Made by a program: the position numbers and the translations under genes
The notes under the pieces: generated by a model
Told to the model about the DNA's origin: nothing
The model's database searches: none
What the model saw: only the letters and a program-made list of their open reading frames with translations
Origin: Escherichia phage Ecwhy_1
Reading direction: 5' to 3' (one strand)
Sequence record: MH791411.1
Length of the DNA stretch: 64,000 nucleotides
Shown: positions 9,678 through 52,518 of the stretch, in pieces
Layout of the letters: every line of letters starts with the position of its first letter
Numbering within the stretch: position 1 is the stretch's first letter

Positions 9678-10026
9678 AACGGAATAAAATTCTCCTGTAC
9701 TGCTCCGGCTTAGTACTCAATCTCTTCACCGGATAATTGTCGAAGATCCTTTTCATTTCTTTCTGGATTAAACAAAGAAAATCAAAATCACAATAGTATT
9801 TTTTATCCCATACTAAACTTTCTTGAAATAACTCATCTTCTTGCATTAGCGTAGTATCAATTGTATCTTCACGTGTATTTGAGTACGCTTCATGACATTG
9901 AAAACCATCTTCTGATAATTCTAATGTATATGCCGCCATTTCAAACATATCATCATTTGTCTTTAACGAAAGTAAACAACAAACGTATTTTTTCGTTGTG
10001 TAGTACGTAATACTAATGGTATTCAT
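9667..10026 (-). CDS. Fam-A paralog
   Basis: core EDELFQESLVW. Confidence 0.6.
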   Translation of the reverse strand: MNTISITYYTTKKYVCCLLSLKTNDDMFEMAAYTLELSEDGFQCHEAYSNTREDTIDTTLMQEDELFQESLVWDKKYYCDFDFLCLIQKEMKRIFDNYPVKRLSTKPEQYRRILFRYED

Positions 10027-10031
10027 GGCAT

Positions 10032-10634
10032 TTAAACCTCAGTATAAAGCTTACAATAGCTTTCATCGAAATCAAAAATACTTCTCAAGAACTGACAAAG
10101 GTCAGTAAAAATATTTACATTTGCTATATACACATTATCAAATTCTGTTCTTTCGAAGAATGTATGCATAGAATTTGTAATATATCTCATTGCAGATTCA
10201 CGCTGCATTGTTATATCATTTGTGAACATTGCATCTTCATCAGTACTGACTAATTCAATATCAAATGATTGCATATATGGGATACTCTTCCCTAGTGCAA
10301 AGCTATCACCGTATGATGCTTCAACTGCACCTTTAGAATACACCAATTGATATAAGTCCGAAATAGGGTTATAAAAAGTACGACATATTGATGAACATAA
10401 TTTATTATCTATCCAAAAGAAAACCCTATTTGTATTACCGTCAAATGCTATACGCAATCCATCACCATCTAACGATATATCACCATCGAGATTAAAAGAG
10501 AACTGAACTAATGCTTTTTCTAAGTCCATTCTTTTGTGATAAATGATTTCTTGCATATAGATAATATCATTTACTAATTTCTTAAAATACAAATGAACCT
10601 CAGTACTACAACATTTATTTGCATTTAATAACAT
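10032..10634 (-). CDS. hypothetical protein, degenerate Fam-A
   Basis: ORF in gene train; motif degenerate (DEDAMFTND). Confidence 0.45.
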   Translation of the reverse strand: MLLNANKCCSTEVHLYFKKLVNDIIYMQEIIYHKRMDLEKALVQFSFNLDGDISLDGDGLRIAFDGNTNRVFFWIDNKLCSSICRTFYNPISDLYQLVYSKGAVEASYGDSFALGKSIPYMQSFDIELVSTDEDAMFTNDITMQRESAMRYITNSMHTFFERTEFDNVYIANVNIFTDLCQFLRSIFDFDESYCKLYTEV

Positions 10635-11221
10635 AGTAGATCCTTATACATTGCATGTATTCTTACAATGTCTCTGTAATAACTCATATCTTCACGATTA
10701 TCATTAAAAACAGTAACACTGAATACAGCAGTACTAATTGAACTATCAACAATGTACTCTTTTAATTTATTATAAAGATATATGCACTTAGTAGATGTAT
10801 CATCCCACATAAGACTATTTTGAAAGATGTTTTCTTCTGTGTTAGGATATAAGTACTGCTCAATCTTGTACTCCAATGAACTATCACAGTTTTTATATAC
10901 AGAAATAGATGGGACATTCATATTGCACATAATACTAATAACATTATCATTGTATGTAGAAATTAAACTGGTACTGGATGCTACACTTTCATCATAATTC
11001 AGTACTGAAATTCTTGCATTATCTGTGCAGTACAGATGTTTCATTCCACCTCTCATAGCCATAGTAAGAAATTTATCAGTGAACCATATTCCTTTTGTTT
11101 TCAGTATAGTTTCATGCATAAGATAAGTTTCAATGAAGATTTTTACACGCTCAAATGCCAAGTCAAGTTCATTGTACATAACGGATATCCTTCTGTAAAG
11201 AATCAATATATTCTTTAACAA
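10625..11221 (-). CDS. Fam-A paralog
   Basis: core EENIFQNSLMW. Confidence 0.6.
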   Translation of the reverse strand: MLKNILILYRRISVMYNELDLAFERVKIFIETYLMHETILKTKGIWFTDKFLTMAMRGGMKHLYCTDNARISVLNYDESVASSTSLISTYNDNVISIMCNMNVPSISVYKNCDSSLEYKIEQYLYPNTEENIFQNSLMWDDTSTKCIYLYNKLKEYIVDSSISTAVFSVTVFNDNREDMSYYRDIVRIHAMYKDLLCY

Positions 11222-11360
11222 CTTGTTCCTGATACTGTGTGCCCAAATACATCAGTACTTTTAATTCTTTGAATTCAGTACTATATGAGTCAATTTGCAT
11301 CATTTTAGAAGAATATATATTGAATAGTTTAGCAATATCATCTTGGTCTATTATTTTCAT
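11169..11360 (-). CDS. Fam-B minigene (outlier copy)
   Basis: LGTQYQEQ core. Confidence 0.5.
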   Translation of the reverse strand: MKIIDQDDIAKLFNIYSSKMMQIDSYSTEFKELKVLMYLGTQYQEQVVKEYIDSLQKDIRYVQ

Positions 11361-11556
11361 ATATTCTCTTCTGGATTAGTTCCTGTAAGTGCTGAATATA
11401 ACCCTTCATTGCAACATCCTGTTTGTTAGAGCCAACGAAGAACAATAGCTTAAAGTCATGGTAATCCATTTTTGGTTTAGTAGTGAACCATATGTCCCAC
11501 ACTGCACTCACAGTTCTCATGTATTCAATTCGATTAAATGTTTTTGAATACTTCAT
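11338..11556 (-). CDS. Fam-B minigene (divergent outlier)
   Basis: VGSNKQDV core with conserved C-terminal helix pattern. Confidence 0.45.
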   Translation of the reverse strand: MKYSKTFNRIEYMRTVSAVWDIWFTTKPKMDYHDFKLLFFVGSNKQDVAMKGYIQHLQELIQKRIYENNRPR

Positions 11557-12070
11557 CGATGTTCATCGCCAATAAGTTAATATACAAATTACTGTTAAAT
11601 GCAATCTGCAATTCCATATAGAACTGAATGATAGCATAGTCAGGGTCAGTACACGATAGTTGAAAACACTGTTCGTCAAATGCATTGTAACTGTACTTAG
11701 GGATGTGAATTTCACGCTTCAAATCAGGTTGACCCCACTTCATCGCATACACACCAATGTTATTGTTCTTTTTCCTTTTCTTAAATGTTAATTGTTGAAT
11801 ATTTCCAGCGTTGTCTAGGAAAATAGTATTATTCGACACAGGTGCACCAATAGAAAACAATGATGTATCAATGACGTGTTTCTCACGTATCTCACACTTC
11901 TGGAATGCACCATTCCCTTGTAACAGTTTATGGAAATCGTACTTCTCATTAACAACAGTACTAGGATCAATTAATCCAGTACTGCATTTTTTCAGTACTG
12001 GTACGATAGTGCGAATCTTTTTTGATAAATCTTGTAATGCATCATAATCATTAATGTTAATTTTTCTCAA
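11534..12070 (-). CDS. Fam-A paralog
   Basis: core DEQCFQLSCT. Confidence 0.55.
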   Translation of the reverse strand: MRKININDYDALQDLSKKIRTIVPVLKKCSTGLIDPSTVVNEKYDFHKLLQGNGAFQKCEIREKHVIDTSLFSIGAPVSNNTIFLDNAGNIQQLTFKKRKKNNNIGVYAMKWGQPDLKREIHIPKYSYNAFDEQCFQLSCTDPDYAIIQFYMELQIAFNSNLYINLLAMNIDEVFKNI

Positions 12071-12513
12071 AAGGATGCCTCTTCTATAGTAACGAAATCA
12101 ACTAACCTATCAAGTTTTTCAGTGTCTAGATAAAATATATCCAGTACTGACTTCTGATATAGTACACTAAATGTACATAGATTGTCAAGTGTTCCTTCAT
12201 TATAAACAGTACTTCCCTGGAAGTACCCTTCTTCTGTACTCAGAGATAAAATATCAGAAATTTTAAAAGATTCTTCATTCTCATGACGCTCTATCGTAAC
12301 TTCATCATATTTTCTGTTCAATGAAATATAATCGTATGCTAATTCAATAGTACTACAGTTGTTGTTGCTAGTGTCAAATAAAGAATCAATTGTAATCTTC
12401 GTACCATTAGAAACTTCTCTGCGTTCATCATCTACGTATTCAGGATTTTCTTTGAAGAACTTAACAACTTTTAGAATATCATTTGCTTTCTTGATTGCAC
12501 TTTCATAACTCAT
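12067..12513 (-). CDS. Fam-A paralog (MSxxSA subfamily)
   Basis: core EEGYFQGSTVY. Confidence 0.65.
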   Translation of the reverse strand: MSYESAIKKANDILKVVKFFKENPEYVDDERREVSNGTKITIDSLFDTSNNNCSTIELAYDYISLNRKYDEVTIERHENEESFKISDILSLSTEEGYFQGSTVYNEGTLDNLCTFSVLYQKSVLDIFYLDTEKLDRLVDFVTIEEASF

Positions 12514-12952
12514 TTTTTCTGGACTCCATATATATCACCTGATTTAGTTCATATACATAATCTAAATCAATGAATATAGAATTATTAAAGTTCTCTTTCA
12601 GGAATGCATTAAAAACTACTAAAGCTCTTAACGCCCCATTTGGGTATATAGTACTGTACTGGAAGTAAGCATCTTCTGAATTTAAAAATAGTACTTCTTC
12701 TTCTGTGAATTCAAAATATTTGCCATCTTCCTCTATAGAATAGAAAGTTCCAGAATCCCATACGAAGTACTTGAATTCCAAATCATAATCATGGGACTCG
12801 TACTTATATTCATTACCTAATCCTAGTATATCTGTACCAACACTTATAGTACTAATATATGCCCCTTTATAGTCTAAGTACTTTACATTATTTTGAAAGA
12901 ACTTTACTATATTAACTAATTCTTCAGCGTGCTTAAGATCACTTTCGTACAT
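12503..12952 (-). CDS. Fam-A paralog
   Basis: core EDAYFQYSTIY. Confidence 0.65.
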   Translation of the reverse strand: MYESDLKHAEELVNIVKFFQNNVKYLDYKGAYISTISVGTDILGLGNEYKYESHDYDLEFKYFVWDSGTFYSIEEDGKYFEFTEEEVLFLNSEDAYFQYSTIYPNGALRALVVFNAFLKENFNNSIFIDLDYVYELNQVIYMESRKNEL

Positions 12953-13266
12953 TATATTTCAATCTCTATATATTTTTGGGTAATTAAGTAATCCCAGTAG
13001 TACTTCACTTGTTTTTGTATCTCAAGTAAAGCATAAAAATTAATTCTCTTATCCCATACAAGTGATTCCTGAAAAAGAAATGTTTCATGATCATCTCTGT
13101 AATCACATTCAAGGAAGTCAGGAATATAATCACAATCGTGAAGATATTCAATCATTAAAGATTCATTACATCTTCTAACGGCAAGGTGCTGGAAATTATC
13201 ATGATCGAAGAAATACATTAAACTAATTGTACCTGGAATGTACTGAATACTGTATAATAATTTCAT
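12952..13266 (-). CDS. Fam-A paralog
   Basis: core ETFLFQESLVW. Confidence 0.6.
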   Translation of the reverse strand: MKLLYSIQYIPGTISLMYFFDHDNFQHLAVRRCNESLMIEYLHDCDYIPDFLECDYRDDHETFLFQESLVWDKRINFYALLEIQKQVKYYWDYLITQKYIEIEI

Positions 13267-13706
13267 CGTTTACCCTTATGTGCTGCACGTACATATTCAT
13301 AATCCAAATAAAATCTTGTGCTATCAATACTTTTAAAGTACCACATAATAACTAAAGTATCTAGTACTTCATCATCATACAAAGTACTATTCTGAAAGTA
13401 ATACTCTTCACTATCCCACGGACCTTTCAGTACTTCAAAGTTCAATTTTAAAGGTCTGCTGCGATTATAAAAACGGATTTCACCACCATAAGCATAACTG
13501 ATAAATTCTGCATCTGGATTGTATTGTGAAAAATCTGCGGGACTTTTGGAATTCAGCCCAAGAATAACTGTAGTTGTGGTAAAATCACTATCCTTGTAGT
13601 AGTTACCATTCTCGGCTTTGTATACTTCTTCGAACTTCCCAGCCTTGATATCTTCAATATATACCTGTAGTTCTTTTGCTTTATCCAGAGCACTTTGTAA
13701 TGACAT
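13263..13706 (-). CDS. Fam-A paralog (MSLxSAL subfamily)
   Basis: GPWDSEEYYFQNSTLY ... WYFK; near-identical module in next four genes. Confidence 0.7.
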   Translation of the reverse strand: MSLQSALDKAKELQVYIEDIKAGKFEEVYKAENGNYYKDSDFTTTTVILGLNSKSPADFSQYNPDAEFISYAYGGEIRFYNRSRPLKLNFEVLKGPWDSEEYYFQNSTLYDDEVLDTLVIMWYFKSIDSTRFYLDYEYVRAAHKGKR

Positions 13707-14172
13707 TATCTTCCCCTACAGTATTCTCTACGTATTCATAATCGAAATAGAAACTATCAGAACCAATACTTTTAAAGTACCACATAATTACAATAACATC
13801 TAATTCTTCTTCATTGTACACAGTACTGTTCTGGAAGTAATATTCTTCACTATCCCACGGACCTTCCAGTACTGAATACGGAATGATTGTGTCATAATCA
13901 TCGTAATCAGGACTGTAAATTATAATATCTTCATCTCTACAATAACTAATGTACTGATTGTACATATGATATTCACAGTCATCAGTATCACCCGTATCAG
14001 TGTGTAGTACTAACGTTTCTGCACATATCTCTGACTCATCATAATCGTCGCGGTCTTTTACAAAAAATTCAGTATCAGATGTTTTATACACACCAGGCAC
14101 TGAACCTTCTTGTACCATAATCATGTACTCATGAATCTTCTTTGCTTCTTTCAATGCACTTTCTAATGACAT
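13681..14172 (-). CDS. Fam-A paralog (MSLxSAL subfamily)
   Basis: GPWDSEEYYFQNSTVY ... WYFK. Confidence 0.7.
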   Translation of the reverse strand: MSLESALKEAKKIHEYMIMVQEGSVPGVYKTSDTEFFVKDRDDYDESEICAETLVLHTDTGDTDDCEYHMYNQYISYCRDEDIIIYSPDYDDYDTIIPYSVLEGPWDSEEYYFQNSTVYNEEELDVIVIMWYFKSIGSDSFYFDYEYVENTVGEDNVITKCSG

Positions 14173-14174
14173 TA

Positions 14175-14615
14175 CTAATCCCCTGTACTTAAATATTCAC
14201 ATGCTCCCCAGTCAAGGAAGAAGGGTTCAAAATTCAATTCCTTAAAGTACCACAAAACAACCAAGGAATCAAGCATTTCTTGGTTAAAAATAAGACTCTG
14301 TTGGAAGTAATACTCTTCAGTACCCCACGGCCCATCAAGTACCCCGAAGTCAACAGGTGTATTTGATGTGTCAAAAGTAATCTTAGTACCTGGAATATAT
14401 ACAAAAAAACTAGTATATTGACTACATGAAGAGTACTGTATAGTATTGTCTTTATCATGGCCCATAAGTAAAATATCATCAGAGTATGTCTTTATACCTG
14501 ATAGATAATACTCATTACCAAATGCACTTACTTTATCACCATAGAAACCACTTTTTATGTTATCGTGGAAGTGATGTATTTTGTGTGCCAGTTTAAGTGC
14601 ACTTGCTAAACTCAT
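14175..14615 (-). CDS. Fam-A paralog (MSLxSAL subfamily)
   Basis: GPWGTEEYYFQQSLIF ... WYFK. Confidence 0.7.
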   Translation of the reverse strand: MSLASALKLAHKIHHFHDNIKSGFYGDKVSAFGNEYYLSGIKTYSDDILLMGHDKDNTIQYSSCSQYTSFFVYIPGTKITFDTSNTPVDFGVLDGPWGTEEYYFQQSLIFNQEMLDSLVVLWYFKELNFEPFFLDWGACEYLSTGD

Positions 14616-15082
14616 ATATCCTCTTTAATAACTCGTAGTAGATCCAAGTCCAAATAGAAGCTAGGACAATCTGTATTATTAAAGTACCACAGAATGACAA
14701 GCTTGTCAAGCACATATTCCTCGTAGATAGTATTCTGCTGGAAGTAGAACTCTTCACTTCCCCAGTCATTATCCAGTACTGAATACGGAAGATGTTTCTC
14801 TGCTGCACCAGTTATAATGTCAGTATATTGTATTAAAATATCAGCATCACGACAGAAGTACATGTAATTATCTTCCAGATTAACATCACACCCAGTGAGT
14901 GTTGTTTCAGAAGAATCTAAGTTTTCTTCGTACATGTGAATGTACTCACTACTGTCATCGTATATCATTCGACAATAAGCTTTACCTTCCTTGAATAGAT
15001 ACCCATTGAGTTGATTGAGTACTATTTCCTTTTTACATAAATCAATTAACTTAGCAATTTCTAATGCTCTTTCTAAACTCAT
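14612..15082 (-). CDS. Fam-A paralog (MSLxSAL subfamily)
   Basis: DWGSEEFYFQQNTIY ... WYF. Confidence 0.7.
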   Translation of the reverse strand: MSLERALEIAKLIDLCKKEIVLNQLNGYLFKEGKAYCRMIYDDSSEYIHMYEENLDSSETTLTGCDVNLEDNYMYFCRDADILIQYTDIITGAAEKHLPYSVLDNDWGSEEFYFQQNTIYEEYVLDKLVILWYFNNTDCPSFYLDLDLLRVIKEDI

Positions 15083-15083
15083 T

Positions 15084-15575
15084 TTAACCCCTGTTAATAC
15101 CGTTATCTACAGTTTTCTTTACGTATTTGTAATCGAAATAGAAGTTCCCAGAACCAATACTTTTAAAGTACCACATAATTATAATAACATCAAGTACTTC
15201 ATCATCGTAAACAGTACTTTGTTGGAAGTAATACTCTTCACTATCCCACGGACCTTCCAGTACTTCACTCGGAATTATAATGTCATCGGAATCGCTATCA
15301 GTACTGTAGATGGTATCTGTATCATTAATATAGACCATGTACTCATTATGCATATTAATGAAGCATTCATAATCATTAGGGTCGGTATCCAGTACACACG
15401 TTTCTGTATCCAGTACGCACGTTTCTGTATCTGAGTCGTCATTATTAAGGAGGTTATCCGGTACATAATATTGAGTACTTGTGTCTTTGAAAACACCGTA
15501 AACTGAACCTTCTTTTGCCATATTCATGTACTCATGAATCTTCTTTGCTTTTTCCAATGAACTCTGTAATGTCAT
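15084..15575 (-). CDS. Fam-A paralog (MSLxSAL subfamily)
   Basis: GPWDSEEYYFQQSTVY ... WYFK. Confidence 0.7.
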   Translation of the reverse strand: MTLQSSLEKAKKIHEYMNMAKEGSVYGVFKDTSTQYYVPDNLLNNDDSDTETCVLDTETCVLDTDPNDYECFINMHNEYMVYINDTDTIYSTDSDSDDIIIPSEVLEGPWDSEEYYFQQSTVYDDEVLDVIIIMWYFKSIGSGNFYFDYKYVKKTVDNGINRG

Positions 15576-15584
15576 TTTATAATC

Positions 15585-15944
15585 TCATATATTGAAATAA
15601 TAATTACTTGTTGTTGGTGTAGATGTATCAAAGGTGTTTTCTTTAACATATCTCTTCATTTCATTTTGTATAAAAATCATATCTTCTATTGTACATGAGT
15701 ACTTATTCTTGTCAAACACCAAAGAAGCTTGAAATAGTTCAACATCATCCAGTACTGTATAATCTGTAATACTTTCAGAGTTATAGTCGAAGTCATCATG
15801 CAATACATCAATGAAATTAAAACACAAATCCGAGTACTGAATATATAAACTCAACTCATGTTCCGAGTCACCCTTGACAAGATTACAGCACAAATCCCAC
15901 CCCGTTCTGGACTTGCAAACGTACATCGAATAATCAAATGTCAT
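15585..15944 (-). CDS. Fam-A paralog (DYTVLD-ELFQ subfamily)
   Basis: DYTVLDDVELFQASLVFDK. Confidence 0.65.
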   Translation of the reverse strand: MTFDYSMYVCKSRTGWDLCCNLVKGDSEHELSLYIQYSDLCFNFIDVLHDDFDYNSESITDYTVLDDVELFQASLVFDKNKYSCTIEDMIFIQNEMKRYVKENTFDTSTPTTSNYYFNI

Positions 15945-16300
15945 TCTGGAATTCCTATATTGAATTTGTATTCTTGATTAATACTGACATTGCCTTTATT
16001 CAAAGCAGCATACTCTTTCATTTCATTTTGTATTGCAATAACTTCTTCAAATGTACACAAGTACTTCTTATCAAATACTAATGACTCCTGAAATAGTTCA
16101 GCCTCATCAAGTACTGTATAATCCGGCATATCCTGATGCGGATACTGTAATGAATTGTAATCAATGAATGTAAATTTACCCTGAGTGAAATGAATATACT
16201 CATTTGCACTGTGCATTAAATCACCTTTGTTTAAATTACAAAAGTACTGAAAACTGTTCTTAAAAGAATGTACTGATATTACAAAATCAAATTCCATCAC
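15941..16300 (-). CDS. Fam-A paralog (DYTVLD-ELFQ subfamily)
   Basis: DYTVLDEAELFQESLVFDKKY. Confidence 0.65.
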   Translation of the reverse strand: MMEFDFVISVHSFKNSFQYFCNLNKGDLMHSANEYIHFTQGKFTFIDYNSLQYPHQDMPDYTVLDEAELFQESLVFDKKYLCTFEEVIAIQNEMKEYAALNKGNVSINQEYKFNIGIPE

Positions 16301-16710
16301 TCTTCCCCTAGATTGAAATGATTACAAAAATCAACTTCACCAGTACTGCACCAGATATCTATACATTCCCTGTGAATACATTTAATTCTACGCTGTAATT
16401 CAATCATCTCTTCTAATGTACAGATGTACTTCTTATCAAATACTAATGCCTCCTGAAACAGTGCAGCATCATCAAGTACTGTATAGTCCAACATCTCGGT
16501 TGCTTTACCCCTAAACCCAGTATTAAAATCCATCAAATAAAAGTCAGCATTTTCGTATTTTATAAGCTTGTCCCTTGTGTAGTTTAAATCACCCTTGTAT
16601 AAGTTAGAGTGCGTAACTAACTCACCAGTGTACATCCATGTCCTTGCACAAAATTCATTATATTTTATTTCCATCTTAATCTCTACTATAATTAATAAGG
16701 TAAACTCCAA
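16297..16710 (-). CDS. Fam-A paralog (DYTVLD-ELFQ subfamily)
   Basis: DYTVLDDAALFQEALVFDKKY. Confidence 0.65.
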   Translation of the reverse strand: MEFTLLIIVEIKMEIKYNEFCARTWMYTGELVTHSNLYKGDLNYTRDKLIKYENADFYLMDFNTGFRGKATEMLDYTVLDDAALFQEALVFDKKYICTLEEMIELQRRIKCIHRECIDIWCSTGEVDFCNHFNLGEE

Positions 16711-33164: not shown

Positions 33165-33409
33165 TTTGAATCTCCTAACTTTGTGGGCCGTCGCACCATT
33201 GCCGCCCTACGAGATACATTATTGCAGTACTGATATACTTTGTCAATACTTTTTTATTAATAGTTTTAGTTCCACCAGCAGATAGTTACTCACCGTTATT
33301 AACTATATATTTTGGATACACTTATGCACCCTGTGGGCTAGTTTTTGTCTATGCGTATATAATAGCAAAGGGACTGACCTGAGTCAATCCCTTTTTTTAT
33401 TCTTTTTTG

Positions 33410-38841: not shown

Positions 38842-39117
38842 TTAAGTATTGTAAATGTCGTGAATAGTGATAAAGTTTTTACGACCGTAAACATGTAAAT
38901 CAGTATCAATGTAGTGCTTATCAAGTACATCCTCGACGCTTAAAGACGTGTCGTGAATATCTTCATAAAATTGTGGATCAACAATCGTGCTTAAGTCATC
39001 TGGCGTTAACTTATCGTTAAGGCATTGAACCGCCTGGATATCTGCTTCACGTTTCCATTGTTCCAGATTAGTAGTCAGTACTTGCTCGATTTCGTTAGCT
39101 GTAAGTAAAGTCCGCAT
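38842..39117 (-). CDS. hypothetical protein
   Basis: 91-aa ORF preceded by duplicated tandem-promoter leader. Confidence 0.45.
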   Translation of the reverse strand: MRTLLTANEIEQVLTTNLEQWKREADIQAVQCLNDKLTPDDLSTIVDPQFYEDIHDTSLSVEDVLDKHYIDTDLHVYGRKNFITIHDIYNT

Positions 39118-39578
39118 TTTAATGTTTCCTTATCAGTGGTTGATGTAAGTATTATACTCGTTTACTTTCTATTGTCAAACTATTTTATCAGGGGAGTTTT
39201 TCGTATGTCTTACTCCTGGACTACTTAACGGGGTTACTTATTTCGTTCCCCGTCCTGATGTAAAACATTATACTTGATTCTAAGTACAATGCAAGTACTT
39301 TTTTAAAAATAGTTTTCAGTACTAGCCACCAGCAAACAATAGATACATTTATGCACCCTGTGGGCTAATTTGTTTCTATGCGTATATAATAGCAAAGGGA
39401 CTGACCGGAGTCAATCCCTTTTTCAAATATTTTTAAACTTCTTTCGGGTTGCGATATGTGATAGCGTTCGGGTACATTTGTTTAATGTTATTCCATGCCT
39501 GGTTAACATTATAACCACTTGATCGAATCAGTTGGTTATTACCGACACCTTGAAACACTACTTCAAATAAGAATTCTT

Positions 39579-41665: not shown

Positions 41666-41760
41666 GATATTATATAGTTACATTTGTGCACCCTATGGGT
41701 TAGTGACGTTCTCGTCTTGATGTAAGTATTATGCCAGTACTGGAGGATATTGTCAATAGA

Positions 41761-43816: not shown

Positions 43817-43897
43817 TTTGATTCTCCTGTTATTGGGGAGAATCATTTCTCCCCTTCATGTAAAACATTATACAGTACTAAAAACTAATTGCAAGTA

Positions 43898-46450: not shown

Positions 46451-46933
46451 TTATGCTTCAACTTTGCGATGAGATTCGATCCATTCCTCGCGAGTCATAC
46501 CGCTGGCGTTAATCGCGTCCAGTACTACCGCAATGCAGTTACCACGCACCGGAATCAGATATTCTTCCCCGTTGTCCAGTACTACCGCTACGCGTTCCTG
46601 AATCCATTTTTTGGCTTTTACTTCTGGCTTGTCTTCCCCATACTTAACCGCCAGGGCTTTTTGTGCCATCTCTGTAACTACTTCCAGATCCAATCCAACT
46701 ACTGCCGCCTGAATACTTTCGATTGTTGCTTGTAGTTCTGCTTCACGGGCCGCCTTTGCCGCTTCAATTTCTGCCGCTTTATTTGCTTGTAGTTCTTTCG
46801 CAGTACTGTACGCGATGTTAAAATTATTGCGTACCGCTTTCATGGTATCGTTATCCAGTTCAGCCAGGATCTCAGCCGCGACGTTAGTTTCATTTGCTAC
46901 CAGTGCTTTGATGAATGATTTTACATTAGCCAT
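46451..46933 (-). CDS. hypothetical protein with Ala/Glu-rich helical segment
   Basis: trimmed to MANVKSFIK; terminator directly downstream. Confidence 0.5.
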   Translation of the reverse strand: MANVKSFIKALVANETNVAAEILAELDNDTMKAVRNNFNIAYSTAKELQANKAAEIEAAKAAREAELQATIESIQAAVVGLDLEVVTEMAQKALAVKYGEDKPEVKAKKWIQERVAVVLDNGEEYLIPVRGNCIAVVLDAINASGMTREEWIESHRKVEA

Positions 46934-47142
46934 TTTATAAATCCTCAATTAAAGTTTAGTTTACGTTTATTAGTGTATCAAAGTTTTCTCGACGTGTCCA
47001 GTTTTTCGTTCGACTTACTGGCGGTCTACTTAGTGCTCCCCGTCTTGATGTAATACATTCTACGCTTTTCTGCGGTAATGTCAACTACTTTCTTAAAACT
47101 ATTTTCAAAGTATCTCAGTACTACGATACTACAAAAACAAAA

Positions 47143-48147: not shown

Positions 48148-48290
48148 TTGACAAGTGCATCCAGTACTGGCATAATTACTACATCAAGACGAAACAGTCA
48201 CTAACCCACCGGGTGCCGAGATCCGTCTATTAAATGATTCAGTACTGAAAAAGTAACGGGGAGTTATTATCTCCCCGTGTTGTTATTTTG
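48148..48290 (+). ncRNA. candidate small RNA / orphan plus-strand transcription unit
   Basis: TTGACA-N17-CATAAT promoter (48148-48176), no ORF, ends at bidirectional terminator hairpin CGGGGAGttattatCTCCCCG plus T-run. Confidence 0.3.
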
Positions 48291-49721: not shown

Positions 49722-50333
49722 TTAATATTCGATTGATTCCACTACGCCATCAATAACATTGAATTGATACTCGTTACCCTCAATCAGTGCCGTAATGTTT
49801 TCAGTAGTGAATTGATCCTCATATGCATTCTCTAAATCACGGTACAACTTGCGGGACAATTCACGAATAGTTTCAGTGAGTAGTTCCTCAAGCTCATTAA
49901 CTAACGTTTCTTGTTTTGCGGTTAAATCAGTGTAAGCCGATTCAATGTACCCGCTTACAGTATTCTCATGCGAGTAGTGGGAGTGCGAACGTTTTACACT
50001 CATCGCCAAATCATCTTCATTCAGCAAGTGACGGATTGAGCGATACTTAGTTAATGCTCTTACCTTGCGTAAAAACTTCACTGCGTCAACGTGGTCAGTA
50101 CTGATTGATGCACCGTCACCCTGGGACCAAAAACCACTGAATTGTATTTCAGCGTCATTAATGCCATATTCCGGTAGTACTGTTTCTTTATAGTATTCAA
50201 TTTCACTTTCAGAAAAATAATTGTCGTTTGAGTTTTTTTCACGTTCCCGAACCAGTTCGATAGCTGACGTTTGTTGTTCTGCGTTCAATTCAGAAAAAGC
50301 CATAACATAAGTAGTAGTAGTGATAGTTTTCAT
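49722..50333 (-). CDS. hypothetical protein
   Basis: 203-aa ORF; FSGFWSQGDGASI motif of unknown affiliation; tandem promoters upstream. Confidence 0.5.
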   Translation of the reverse strand: MKTITTTTYVMAFSELNAEQQTSAIELVREREKNSNDNYFSESEIEYYKETVLPEYGINDAEIQFSGFWSQGDGASISTDHVDAVKFLRKVRALTKYRSIRHLLNEDDLAMSVKRSHSHYSHENTVSGYIESAYTDLTAKQETLVNELEELLTETIRELSRKLYRDLENAYEDQFTTENITALIEGNEYQFNVIDGVVESIEY

Positions 50334-50557
50334 TTTGTAACCCTCATTCAGTAGTTGATGTAAGTATTATACGCTTTTAAAAACATTTGTCAAACTATTT
50401 TATCAGGGGAGTTTTTCGTGTGCCTTACTCCTGGGCTACTTAACGGGAAGTTACTTATTTCGTTCCCCGTCCTGATGTAAAACATTATACGCCTTTAAAC
50501 ATAGTTTGCAAGTACTTTTTAAAAATAGTTTTCAGTACTGAATAGTAAAAAAAAGTA

Positions 50558-50586
50558 TTGACAGCATTATCAAGTACTGGTATAAT
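50558..50586 (+). promoter_or_regulatory. orphan sigma70-type promoter TTGACA-N17-TATAAT
   Basis: plus strand, no ORF downstream; faces minus-strand promoter at 50702-50730. Confidence 0.5.
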
Positions 50587-50701: not shown

Positions 50702-50730
50702 ATTATGCCAGTACTGACAAAATAAGTCAA
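50702..50730 (-). promoter_or_regulatory. sigma70-type promoter TTGACT-N17-CATAAT (convergent partner)
   Basis: read on minus strand; leader contains AGCCCATAGGGTGC. Confidence 0.5.
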
Positions 50731-52490: not shown

Positions 52491-52518
52491 TTGACTTGAT
52501 CCTGAAAAAGCGTATAAT
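52491..52518 (+). promoter_or_regulatory. orphan sigma70-type promoter TTGACT-N16-TATAAT
   Basis: plus strand in ORF-poor region. Confidence 0.45.

Follow-up and report, generated by a model that had tools for sequence, protein, structure and literature searches.

The tandem early promoters A1, A2, and A3 of bacteriophage T7 are a classic arrangement, and the untranslated RNA that lies between them has so far been treated as spacer or as a handy in vitro template. Here we describe an element of the same design in a 64,000-nucleotide (nt) stretch of DNA from Escherichia phage Ecwhy_1 (sequence record MH791411.1), hereafter the window. Two full copies on the minus strand, A (39136-39317) and B (50351-50533, all parts counted), each combine two promoters, P1 and P2, with a structured leader, and a third, divergent copy of the core, C, lies at 46995-47034. 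As in T7, strong sigma-70 promoters stand in tandem about 115-130 nt apart with no open reading frame (ORF) between them, the first ten transcribed bases are the same (ATCGAGAGGG at the early promoters of the window, +1 to +10 at T7 A1), a hairpin is predicted at the 5' end, the same module of about 40 nt sits just 5' of the second promoter, and the whole lies in the DNA that comes first in the genome, within or close to the terminal repeat. Unlike in T7, the module is held within a predicted closing helix from +1 as part of a three-way junction, occurs in three copies per genome before three unrelated small genes rather than in one copy before ocr, follows a P1 of the form TTGCA(A/T) with an UP element, has neither a boxA nor an obvious RNase III site after it, and is carried by a myovirus of about 350 kb. 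The tandem promoters were already known; what is new, within the literature searched, is an undescribed, covarying RNA module common to the window and T7. Searches by name and by sequence string found the module only inside T7 A1 templates and reporter fragments; the classic T7 sequence papers fall outside the scope of those searches, and an older description is possible.

Three other kinds of described RNA resemble the element in part. The 5'-terminal stabilizer hairpins of Escherichia coli mRNAs, such as the one reportedly described in the ompA 5' untranslated region (UTR) by Emory, Bouvet, and Belasco in 1992, have a helix within 0-5 nt of the 5' end, as is predicted here for the element and for 22 other early leaders. 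Such hairpins need no conserved loop, whereas here the unpaired bases are the most conserved part, which implies something more specific than a stabilizer hairpin. The HK022 put, lambda nut, and rrn boxB-boxA sites are, like the element, promoter-proximal structured RNAs of the sense strand, and a boxA lies near the module in some Autographiviridae; unlike lambda nut and rrn sites, however, the window is without boxA, and the module loop is far larger than a boxB loop. The pseudoknot of the T4 gene 32 leader and the preQ1-type riboswitches share with the module its size, proposed topology, and A-rich third loop, but there is no sequence or Rfam match and no adjacent operator or expression platform, and the pseudoknot of the module is proposed from one covarying pair.

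Our favored explanation, to which we give about an even chance, is that the element is a horizontally shared early-transcription cassette for host RNA polymerase, whose leader RNA would act in cis and give two classes of early message.

A Covarying Module Shared With T7

Copy C, used as a blastn query, matched T7-group Yersinia phages at nt 553-587, within the A1-A2 interval, as well as the jumbo phages Hallingskeid, Munch, 7t3, and fENko-Kae01 and one Vequintavirinae phage. In T7 itself the module spans nt 549-589 (GATAAGTAGACAGCCTGATAAGTCGCACGAAAAACAGGTAT), between the annotated E. coli promoters A1 (498) and A2 (626). With the T7 A1-A2 interval as query, 489 phage records from many enterobacterial hosts were matched, the remotest of which keep the module alone. 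By sequence comparison, then, the element is the jumbo-phage version of the T7 A1-A2 early-promoter interval and homologous to it. Neither this relationship nor the third copy figured in an earlier note on this DNA, which had described A and B from the letters alone as a duplicated leader with tandem promoters; universal conservation, moreover, is limited to about 40 of the 85 nt between the promoters.

The module has the consensus UAAGUAG-NC, followed by a stem of 4-5 base pairs (bp) with the loop UAAG-NC-NN-ACGAAAA. In an alignment of 31 distinct versions (A6), the four core stem pairs are paired throughout, and three of them show two or three pair types: the first pair is C-G in 25 versions and G-C in 6, the second C-G in 23, G-C in 6, and U-A in 2, the third U-A in 18, A-U in 12, and U-G in 1, and the fourth G-C in all 31. 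An outer fifth pair is often G.U or unpaired. Cells of the alignment are paired in 96% of cases, compared with 77% in shuffles (none of 500 reached the observed value) and 14-38% in controls with slid partners. When all column pairs were scanned for mutual information, the top ranks were exactly the three variable stem pairs and one additional pair that joins the linker 5' of the stem to the loop.

This additional pair is the middle one of three by which the linker triplet G-N-C can pair with G-N'-C in the loop. The two flanking pairs, G-C and C-G, are invariant, and the middle pair is A-U in 22 versions, C-G in 5, and U-A in 3, with one mismatch. The U-A and C-G variants each occur on two different stems (U-A with a CCUG stem in contig L061, C-G with a CCAG stem in L062 and L067, and both on the GGAG stem of the A and B types of the window), which implies at least four independent double changes. 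With the linker triplet before the stem and the partner triplet inside the loop, the module would adopt the topology of an H-type pseudoknot, with connecting loops of 1 nt, 3-4 nt (UAA), and 10 nt (A-rich); the argument comes from one covarying pair flanked by two invariant ones. A local hairpin, GUAGUC/GAC(A)UAC, was tried and dropped, since a third linked substitution would break it while the 3-bp linker-loop pairing fits all versions. The T7 loop also looks like part of the rrn leader, but this likeness was dismissed because the bases behind it vary within the module family.

Several small riboswitch classes are likewise H-type pseudoknots of small size, in which the third loop is A-rich and unpaired bases are invariant, and a ligand-sensing aptamer in the early leader might be proposed on these grounds. 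We find it barely credible that the module is one: it has no expression platform, neither a terminator nor a helix that would sequester the Shine-Dalgarno sequence (in A and B a promoter comes next), it is absent from bacterial genomes, and it matched no Rfam family. Searched with Rfam 15, the whole window gave no gathering match and the region 39080-39360 only chance-level ones (E up to 10), and at the T7, phiA1122, L067, and Munch loci the module itself had no match.

G.U pairs occur in the module stem and in the second hairpin (H2) of the leader, and would be mismatches if read on the opposite strand. Because G.U is tolerated on the promoter-sense strand only, that strand is the pairing strand, most simply as RNA. 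These G.U pairs, the compensatory changes in three of the four core stem pairs, and the further covarying pair support the functional RNA element that the earlier note had suggested. The same data bear on an alternative in which conservation acts on DNA, the module serving P2 as an UP element or as spacing, or belonging to a T7-like cluster of strong promoters by which genome entry is aided, and the RNA fold being incidental. In T7-like phages the last base of the module is also the first of the A2 -35 box (in T7, the first T of that box), and the A-tract of the module falls at about -52 to -45; the early promoters of the window, too, all point in one direction and lie in the terminal repeat; and the T7 A1-A3 promoter region has been described as a non-coding internalization signal (PMC11863960). 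This alternative nevertheless seems improbable to us, in that no promoter follows the module in copy C, EJP2, the C-type copy of 121Q, L062, or L067, the distance from module to -35 box ranges from 2 to more than 40 nt, and double-stranded DNA binding explains neither the compensatory changes nor the strand-specific G.U pairs.

Architecture of the Full Copies

Copies A and B were found where the earlier note had placed them, each with the two tandem promoters that it reported. They share one order of parts: an UP-like A/T block, P1, GTTTTAC, a segment of 73 nt (A) or 75 nt (B) that runs from ATCAGG to CCTGAT, AAAATAGT, P2, ACTTAC, a leader of 26-27 nt with a Shine-Dalgarno sequence, and ATG. 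P2 is a perfect sigma-70 consensus in both copies, and P1 stands behind a full UP-like block, like about 30 other promoters of the window (Table 1). The identity of the two copies, earlier put at about 90%, is 86% in a pairwise alignment and strongly mosaic. It reaches 96% in the UP element, falls from 83% in the P1 -35 box to 38% in the P1 spacer, rises to 100% in the P1 -10 box and discriminator, and is 93% in the transcribed core and 100% in the 8-nt linker; in P2 both boxes are identical (100%) around a spacer at 50%, and the P2 leader is at 69%. Two stretches of the core, 29-31 nt long, each occur exactly twice in the window, where none is expected (100 shuffles).

A core flanked by promoter consensus sequences, which are obvious recombination points, could also be a neutral by-product, either a recent segmental duplication or a scar of recombination between similar promoters, and the copies in Asteriusvirus are indeed very alike. 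That explanation was already disfavored and we give it almost no weight: the module is kept across phage families without other nucleotide similarity, and covariation and mosaic conservation are seen together with divergent promoter spacers and with indels in loops only.

A small protein gene was rejected for the inter-promoter segment. In line with the earlier note, no ORF is conserved across it; the short reading frames of A and B are unlike, those of homologues are broken by indels of 1, 2, and 4 nt, and the sole ATG lies inside the -10 box, 5' of the predicted start. A miniature transposable element was rejected as well, as the element has no inverted repeat apart from the 6-bp closing stem, its flanks (TAC and AAA) show no duplication, and there are just two or three copies per genome, always in promoter contexts. 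ARAGORN found no tRNA or tmRNA gene in the window.

RNAfold predicts for both leaders a three-way junction made of the closing stem, H2 (ACGGGG/CCCCGU in A, ACGGGGA/UUCCCGU in B), and a third hairpin, H3 (GGAGU/ACUCC around a 14-nt loop), with UAAGUAG(U/C)CCA unpaired. The nested hairpins drawn in the earlier note are this minimum-free-energy (MFE) fold, the energy of which is -21 kcal/mol in A (z -2.75) and -19.4 kcal/mol in B (z -1.2). We infer that P1 transcripts start at the A of AUCAGG by analogy with T7 A1, which has the same spacing from the -10 box (7 nt, ATCGAG...) and an annotated start at T7 nt 498; because the start is so placed, the closing stem would take in the first nucleotide. 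In the predicted fold the two copies differ by a 2-nt indel, one loop change, and a double change from U-A to C-G, by which the S1 arms are GCC/GGC in B, compensatory relative to GUC/GAC in A. Differences that destroy pairing, which the earlier note had named as refuting, were not found: all predicted pairs are kept. Among 14 distinct versions of the A/B type, likewise, no pair is broken, two C-to-U changes yield G.U, and indels occur in loops only; an alignment of this type alone is uninformative for covariation because its copies are too alike.

In all myophage versions, the MFE fold pairs the first transcribed bases with a stretch just 3' of the module, and the sequence that does so differs each time. 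The closing helix is AUCAGG with CCUGAU in A and B, AUCAAG with UUUGAU plus GACG with CGUC in C, GACGG with CCGUC in LTH01, CGGC with GCCG in Munch, and AUC with GAU plus CGG with CCG in Hallingskeid, and UAAGUAG is unpaired in every case. In T7 a hairpin of its own (AUCGAGAGGGA..UCCCAAUCGA) closes the 5' end, and a second small hairpin and then the module follow.

The leader of copy C was found through a census of promoters (see below) and has in common with the core the blocks ACATCA-GACGGGGA, TAAGTAG, AGTAAG, and ACGAAAAACT. It is without H2 and without a second promoter, which is thus not an obligatory part of the element. A covariance model (R1), built from 24 versions that include T7 and the window copies themselves, finds exactly three copies of the module in the window, the next match having E > 2.

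Distribution and Modularity

The 93-nt core is present at 90-100% identity in 44 phage records, which include all 121Q-type phages and also phages of about 145 kb among the Vequintavirinae (A73, W70, A7_1) and Justusliebigvirus (muut, outra, EmilieFrey). Among 19 aligned copies, at least six versions of the P1 -35 box and spacer precede it and at least five P2 spacers and downstream genes come after it, and in two lineages the canonical 5' hairpin comes after P2. In this sequence comparison the core behaves as a unit bounded by promoter consensus sequences, and such a variety of upstream P1 halves and downstream genes bears out the mobile regulatory module of the earlier note.

The exact pattern of the A/B-type center was found in 121Q-type contigs only, both in IMG/VR and in metagenomes. 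Looser patterns gave 28 and then 82 loci in IMG/VR, from which filtering with the covariance model added T7-like and LIMEzero-like versions; about 40 of the 82 were rejected by the model as chance matches or an unrelated repeat (AAAGTAGACCATTGCCTAAGGC...). Bacterial genomes totaling 596 Gb contained no genuine module, the three matches being one T7-like phage contig and two sequences without the stem; the module is a phage feature. Every copy inspected lies 30-90 nt 3' of an early promoter of sigma-70 type, recognized by its consensus or, in T7, annotated, and is on the sense strand. A second promoter after the module is frequent but not universal: it is present in A, B, the T7-like phages, LTH01, Hallingskeid, and Munch, and a Shine-Dalgarno sequence and a gene directly follow the module in copy C, EJP2, and the C-type copy of 121Q.

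A module that is always promoter-proximal and sense-oriented could be a processive antitermination or anti-Rho signal, like the HK022 put RNA or the lambda nut and rrn boxB-boxA sites. On this account the nascent pseudoknot would bind its own polymerase, with or without Nus factors, and polymerases from P1 would pass terminators and long untranslated stretches while those from P2 would not. The compact fold and invariant unpaired bases suit direct recognition by a protein, and an rrn-type boxA (GCTCTTTAACAATC) lies 120-380 nt 3' of the module in most T7-like leaders. In two contigs of LIMEzero-like podoviruses (L062, 5386-5470; L067, 4111-4190) a boxA of this type (GCTCTTTAA) lies 21-27 nt past the module, and the order of hairpin and then boxA is that of the rrn leader. 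We still judge antitermination unlikely. No boxA (GCTCTT(T)A) was found within 450 nt of any myophage copy, nor above chance in the window; the early genes each have their own promoter and few terminators were found, which leaves little evident need for read-through; and in T7 the A2 and A3 transcripts serve the same genes without the module.

The pattern of invariant bases in unpaired regions and variable stems would also suit a trans-acting small RNA or decoy, in which a processed leader titrates or mimics a host RNA-binding factor or defense sensor. The core is an independent unit between two promoters, in the usual place of a gene, and in T7 RNase III separates the A1 leader from the 0.3 mRNA at R0.3, which counts in favor of such a role. 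However, no terminator or U-tract follows the module, and neither copy A nor copy B has an intrinsic terminator (a G+C-rich hairpin with a U-tract), the sequence after the closing stem being AAAAUAG. In copy C, EJP2, and the C-type copy of 121Q the module is merely part of an mRNA 5' UTR, and no long duplex of RNase III type lies beside it in the window. A decoy, too, is an explanation that we would not expect to hold.

A Possible Function in cis

The explanation that we favor, a cassette whose leader acts in cis on early transcripts, can be set out as follows. The leader of the P1 transcript would fold from nucleotide one, with a 6-bp closing stem around a variable hairpin and the module of about 40 nt, and the module would act in cis, in the form of RNA, on those transcripts that begin at P1. 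The closing helix would hide the 5' end from decay that depends on it, as the simple hairpins of other early promoters would, and the invariant unpaired bases of the pseudoknot would dock a host component present at time zero, which may be RNA polymerase or elongation factors, the ribosome, or an RNase. Two message classes would follow from a P1 leader that acts in cis and P2 transcripts that are without it: the same gene would yield a long, structured, and privileged message from P1 and a short, plain one with an unstructured leader from P2. Because the stems vary while the unpaired bases are invariant, specific recognition or a tertiary fold, beyond a stabilizing hairpin, is to be suspected, and a host partner would be likelier than a phage partner because the element stands in the first host-polymerase transcripts of phage groups with almost no nucleotide similarity. 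As modeled, the P1 closing helix from +1 and the hairpins at 22 other promoters fit 5'-end protection, and the leader may affect stability or elongation.

Several observations weigh against this explanation. First, the starts of P1 and P2 are placed by consensus and by analogy with T7 A1. Second, the leader of B folds only modestly better than shuffled sequences, by the z value given above, and that of C no better (z about 0), while the closing stem and H2 are invariant within the A/B type and have no covariation support of their own, and the pseudoknot helix is of 3 bp with one variable pair. Third, the T7 5' end is closed by a separate hairpin, with the module 50-90 nt further 3', so that the module itself cannot be what protects the 5' end. 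Fourth, the UP-element position of T7 A2 falls on the module's A-rich 3' half, and part of the conservation may act at the DNA level. Finally, the T7 deletion D111, by which A2/A3 and probably part of the module are lost, is reported to be viable, in which case the element would be dispensable in the laboratory.

A broader proposal, which we offer tentatively and rate at clearly less than even, is that the module is an unrecognized class of phage RNA pseudoknot, carried by the T7 A1 transcript and by no fewer than four further groups of virulent enterobacterial phages, that binds a host component in the first transcripts and so marks privileged immediate-early RNA. If this is true, RNA polymerase or elongation factors, the ribosome, an RNase, and a defense sensor are candidates for the component bound. 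Compensatory changes accompany the conservation of some 40 nt across a range of phages that reaches from T7-like podoviruses to 350-kb jumbo myoviruses. These groups are otherwise nearly without nucleotide similarity, and the conservation points to a need common to phages whose first minute of infection depends on the host polymerase. The module is a small, defined, and mutable target in a model phage, and its presence in T7 makes the hypothesis directly testable with standard tools.

Genome Setting and Early Promoters

At 99.8% identity, the window matches Escherichia phage fEgEco12, which belongs to the 121Q/PBECO4 group and is a jumbo myovirus. In phage records that contain both terminal repeats each copy of the element is present twice, and in vB_Ec-M-J the matches fall inside a feature annotated as 'Direct Terminal Repeats'. 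The promoter census gave 32 matches on the minus strand, about 31 of which, between about 32.8 and 53.5 kb and 5' of small ORFs, are built alike, each from a full UP-like block, then TTGCAA or TTGACA-16-TATAAT, then GTTTTAC. Judged by their sequence, these are host-type early promoters. At 22 promoters of the census, a canonical G/C hairpin of the type GAGAGGGGGAA-NNNN-TTCCCCCTC begins a few nt past the predicted start, directly 3' of the start region ACATC, and is followed by the Shine-Dalgarno sequence and by an ATG about 50 nt from the -10 box. Copies A and B are a special case in this large family of promoters with 5' hairpins, one in which a larger element replaces the simple hairpin and a second promoter is added. 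The terminal repeat of 121Q-type phages thus holds an annotation gap, in that no annotation currently covers its roughly 30 promoters with their 5' hairpins, nor two or more families of ORF-less transcription units.

Table 1. Features of the three copies and their surroundings in the window. Bits and E values are from covariance model R1, which includes the window copies; starts (+1) are predicted, and stems are those of the MFE fold or the module alignment.
Feature	Position	Strand	Details
Copy A, UP-like A/T block	39295..39317	minus	GAAAACTATTTTTAAAAAAGTAC; 5' of P1; 96% identical to B; block common to many early promoters of the window
Copy A, P1	39267..39294	minus	TTGCAT-16-TATAAT; predicted +1 is A at 39259
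Copy A, structured leader	39187..39259	minus	73 nt; MFE fold
Copy A, closing stem	39254-39259 with 39187-39192	minus	AUCAGG with CCUGAU; MFE fold
Copy A, H2	39228-39253	minus	ACGGGG..CCCCGU; MFE fold
Copy A, conserved module	39190..39229	minus	55.7 bits, E 2.5e-13; parts UAAGUAG, S1, S2, and loop UAAGACAUACGAAAA
Copy A, stem S1	39219-39221 with 39207-39209	minus	5' arm GUC, 3' arm GAC
Copy A, stem S2	39212-39216 with 39193-39197	minus	GGAGU with ACUCC
Copy A, P2	39151..39178	minus	TTGACA-16-TATAAT, 12/12 of consensus; predicted +1 39144; 27-nt leader, Shine-Dalgarno AAGGA
Copy A, P0 (upstream)	39386..39414	minus	TTGACT-17-TATTAT; starts a separate ORF-less unit
Gene A	38842..39117	minus	91 amino acids, acidic, isoelectric point (pI) 4.4; PHROG 14947
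Copy B, UP-like block	50512..50533	minus	5' of P1
Copy B, P1	50484..50511	minus	TTGCAA-16-TATAAT; predicted +1 50476
Copy B, structured leader	50402..50476	minus	75 nt; closing stem AUCAGG/CCUGAU; H2 ACGGGGA/UUCCCGU includes one G.U
Copy B, conserved module	50405..50444	minus	54.2 bits, E 6.4e-13; S1 arms GCC/GGC
Copy B, P2	50366..50393	minus	TTGACA-16-TATAAT, 12/12 of consensus; predicted +1 50359
Copy B, P0 (upstream)	50702..50730	minus	TTGACT-17-CATAAT; unit type as upstream of A (family D15)
Gene B	49722..50333	minus	203 amino acids, acidic, pI 4.6; PHROG 5162; unrelated to gene A
Copy C, single promoter	47057..47084	minus	TTGACA-16-TAGAAT; predicted +1 47049
Copy C, leader	46977..47049	minus	Closing helices AUCAAG/UUUGAU and GACG/CGUC around module; then Shine-Dalgarno and ATG 46933
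Copy C, conserved module	46995..47034	minus	55.7 bits, E 2.5e-13; S2 CCAGU/ACUGG; S1 arms GAC/GUC as in T7-type versions
Gene C	46451..46933	minus	160 amino acids; PHROG 27871

Genes Behind the Copies

The proteins of genes A and B show no relationship on comparison, as the earlier note had stated of the genes behind the two copies. A homolog of gene A lies 3' of the same cassette in Justusliebigvirus muut. Comparison of genes A, B, and C with PHROGs, Pfam, NCBIfam, and PDB sequences gave no functional assignment. The homologous promoter cluster of T7-like phages stands before the anti-restriction gene ocr, and by analogy of position one may guess at an anti-defense role for genes A and B.

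The T7 gene 10 translational enhancer and Shine-Dalgarno region is AACTTTAAGAAGGAGATATACATATG. In the leader of gene C (46934-46965, minus strand), AAACTTTAATTGAGGATTTATAAAATG is closely like this region, and so is a stretch of the Munch locus (L019, about 525-557). It would be a further regulatory motif common to these myophages and T7.

Other Repeats and Promoter Units

Upstream of P1 in both A and B lies a unit of a second ORF-less family, with the promoter TTGAC(A/T)-17-(C/T)ATAAT and the leader ACATCAAGACG-loop-CGTC-AC-TAACCCA(YN)GGGTGC..AATGTA(A/T)CTAT. At copy A this makes three serial promoters, P0, P1, and P2, about 119 and 115 nt apart. Besides the two P0 sites (39386-39414 and 50702-50730), the family occupies 41728-41756 on the minus strand and 48148-48176 and 52491-52518 on the plus strand, hence both orientations, and related repeats are at 33213, 33982, 42246, 42508, 45363, and 45655. 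With blastn it was found at 245 places in 54 records, all of them from Rak2-like jumbo phages (RaK2, K64-1, GAP32, CBB, Munch, Hallingskeid) and none from T7-like phages. Between P0 and P1 of copy B, a perfect consensus promoter on the plus strand (50558-50586, TTGACA-17-TATAAT with an extended -10, TG) is directed away from the early genes; after it comes GCACCCGGTGGGT, which is the AGCCCAYAGGGTGC motif in inverted form.

At many promoters of the window the palindrome AGTACT abuts the -35 box on its upstream side, and often the -10 box as well (AGTACTTGCA; CAGTACTGTATAAT); examples are at 50535-50540, 39319-39324, and 43870-43880. A regulator or a modification enzyme may recognize it. Between 52962 and 53113 lies an array of repeats with an 8-bp period (CGTCTAGC, CATCCAGC, and the like). 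By extrapolation of fEgEco12 coordinates, it would be near the start of the fEgEco12 record, and hence near the physical end of the genome or the boundary of the terminal repeat. T7, too, has short repeat arrays beside its terminal repeat. Several families of direct repeats (D5, D9, D16, and D18), 120-205 nt long and spaced by about 440 or 365 nt at 13277-15311 and 9751-16497, look like tandem paralogous small genes.

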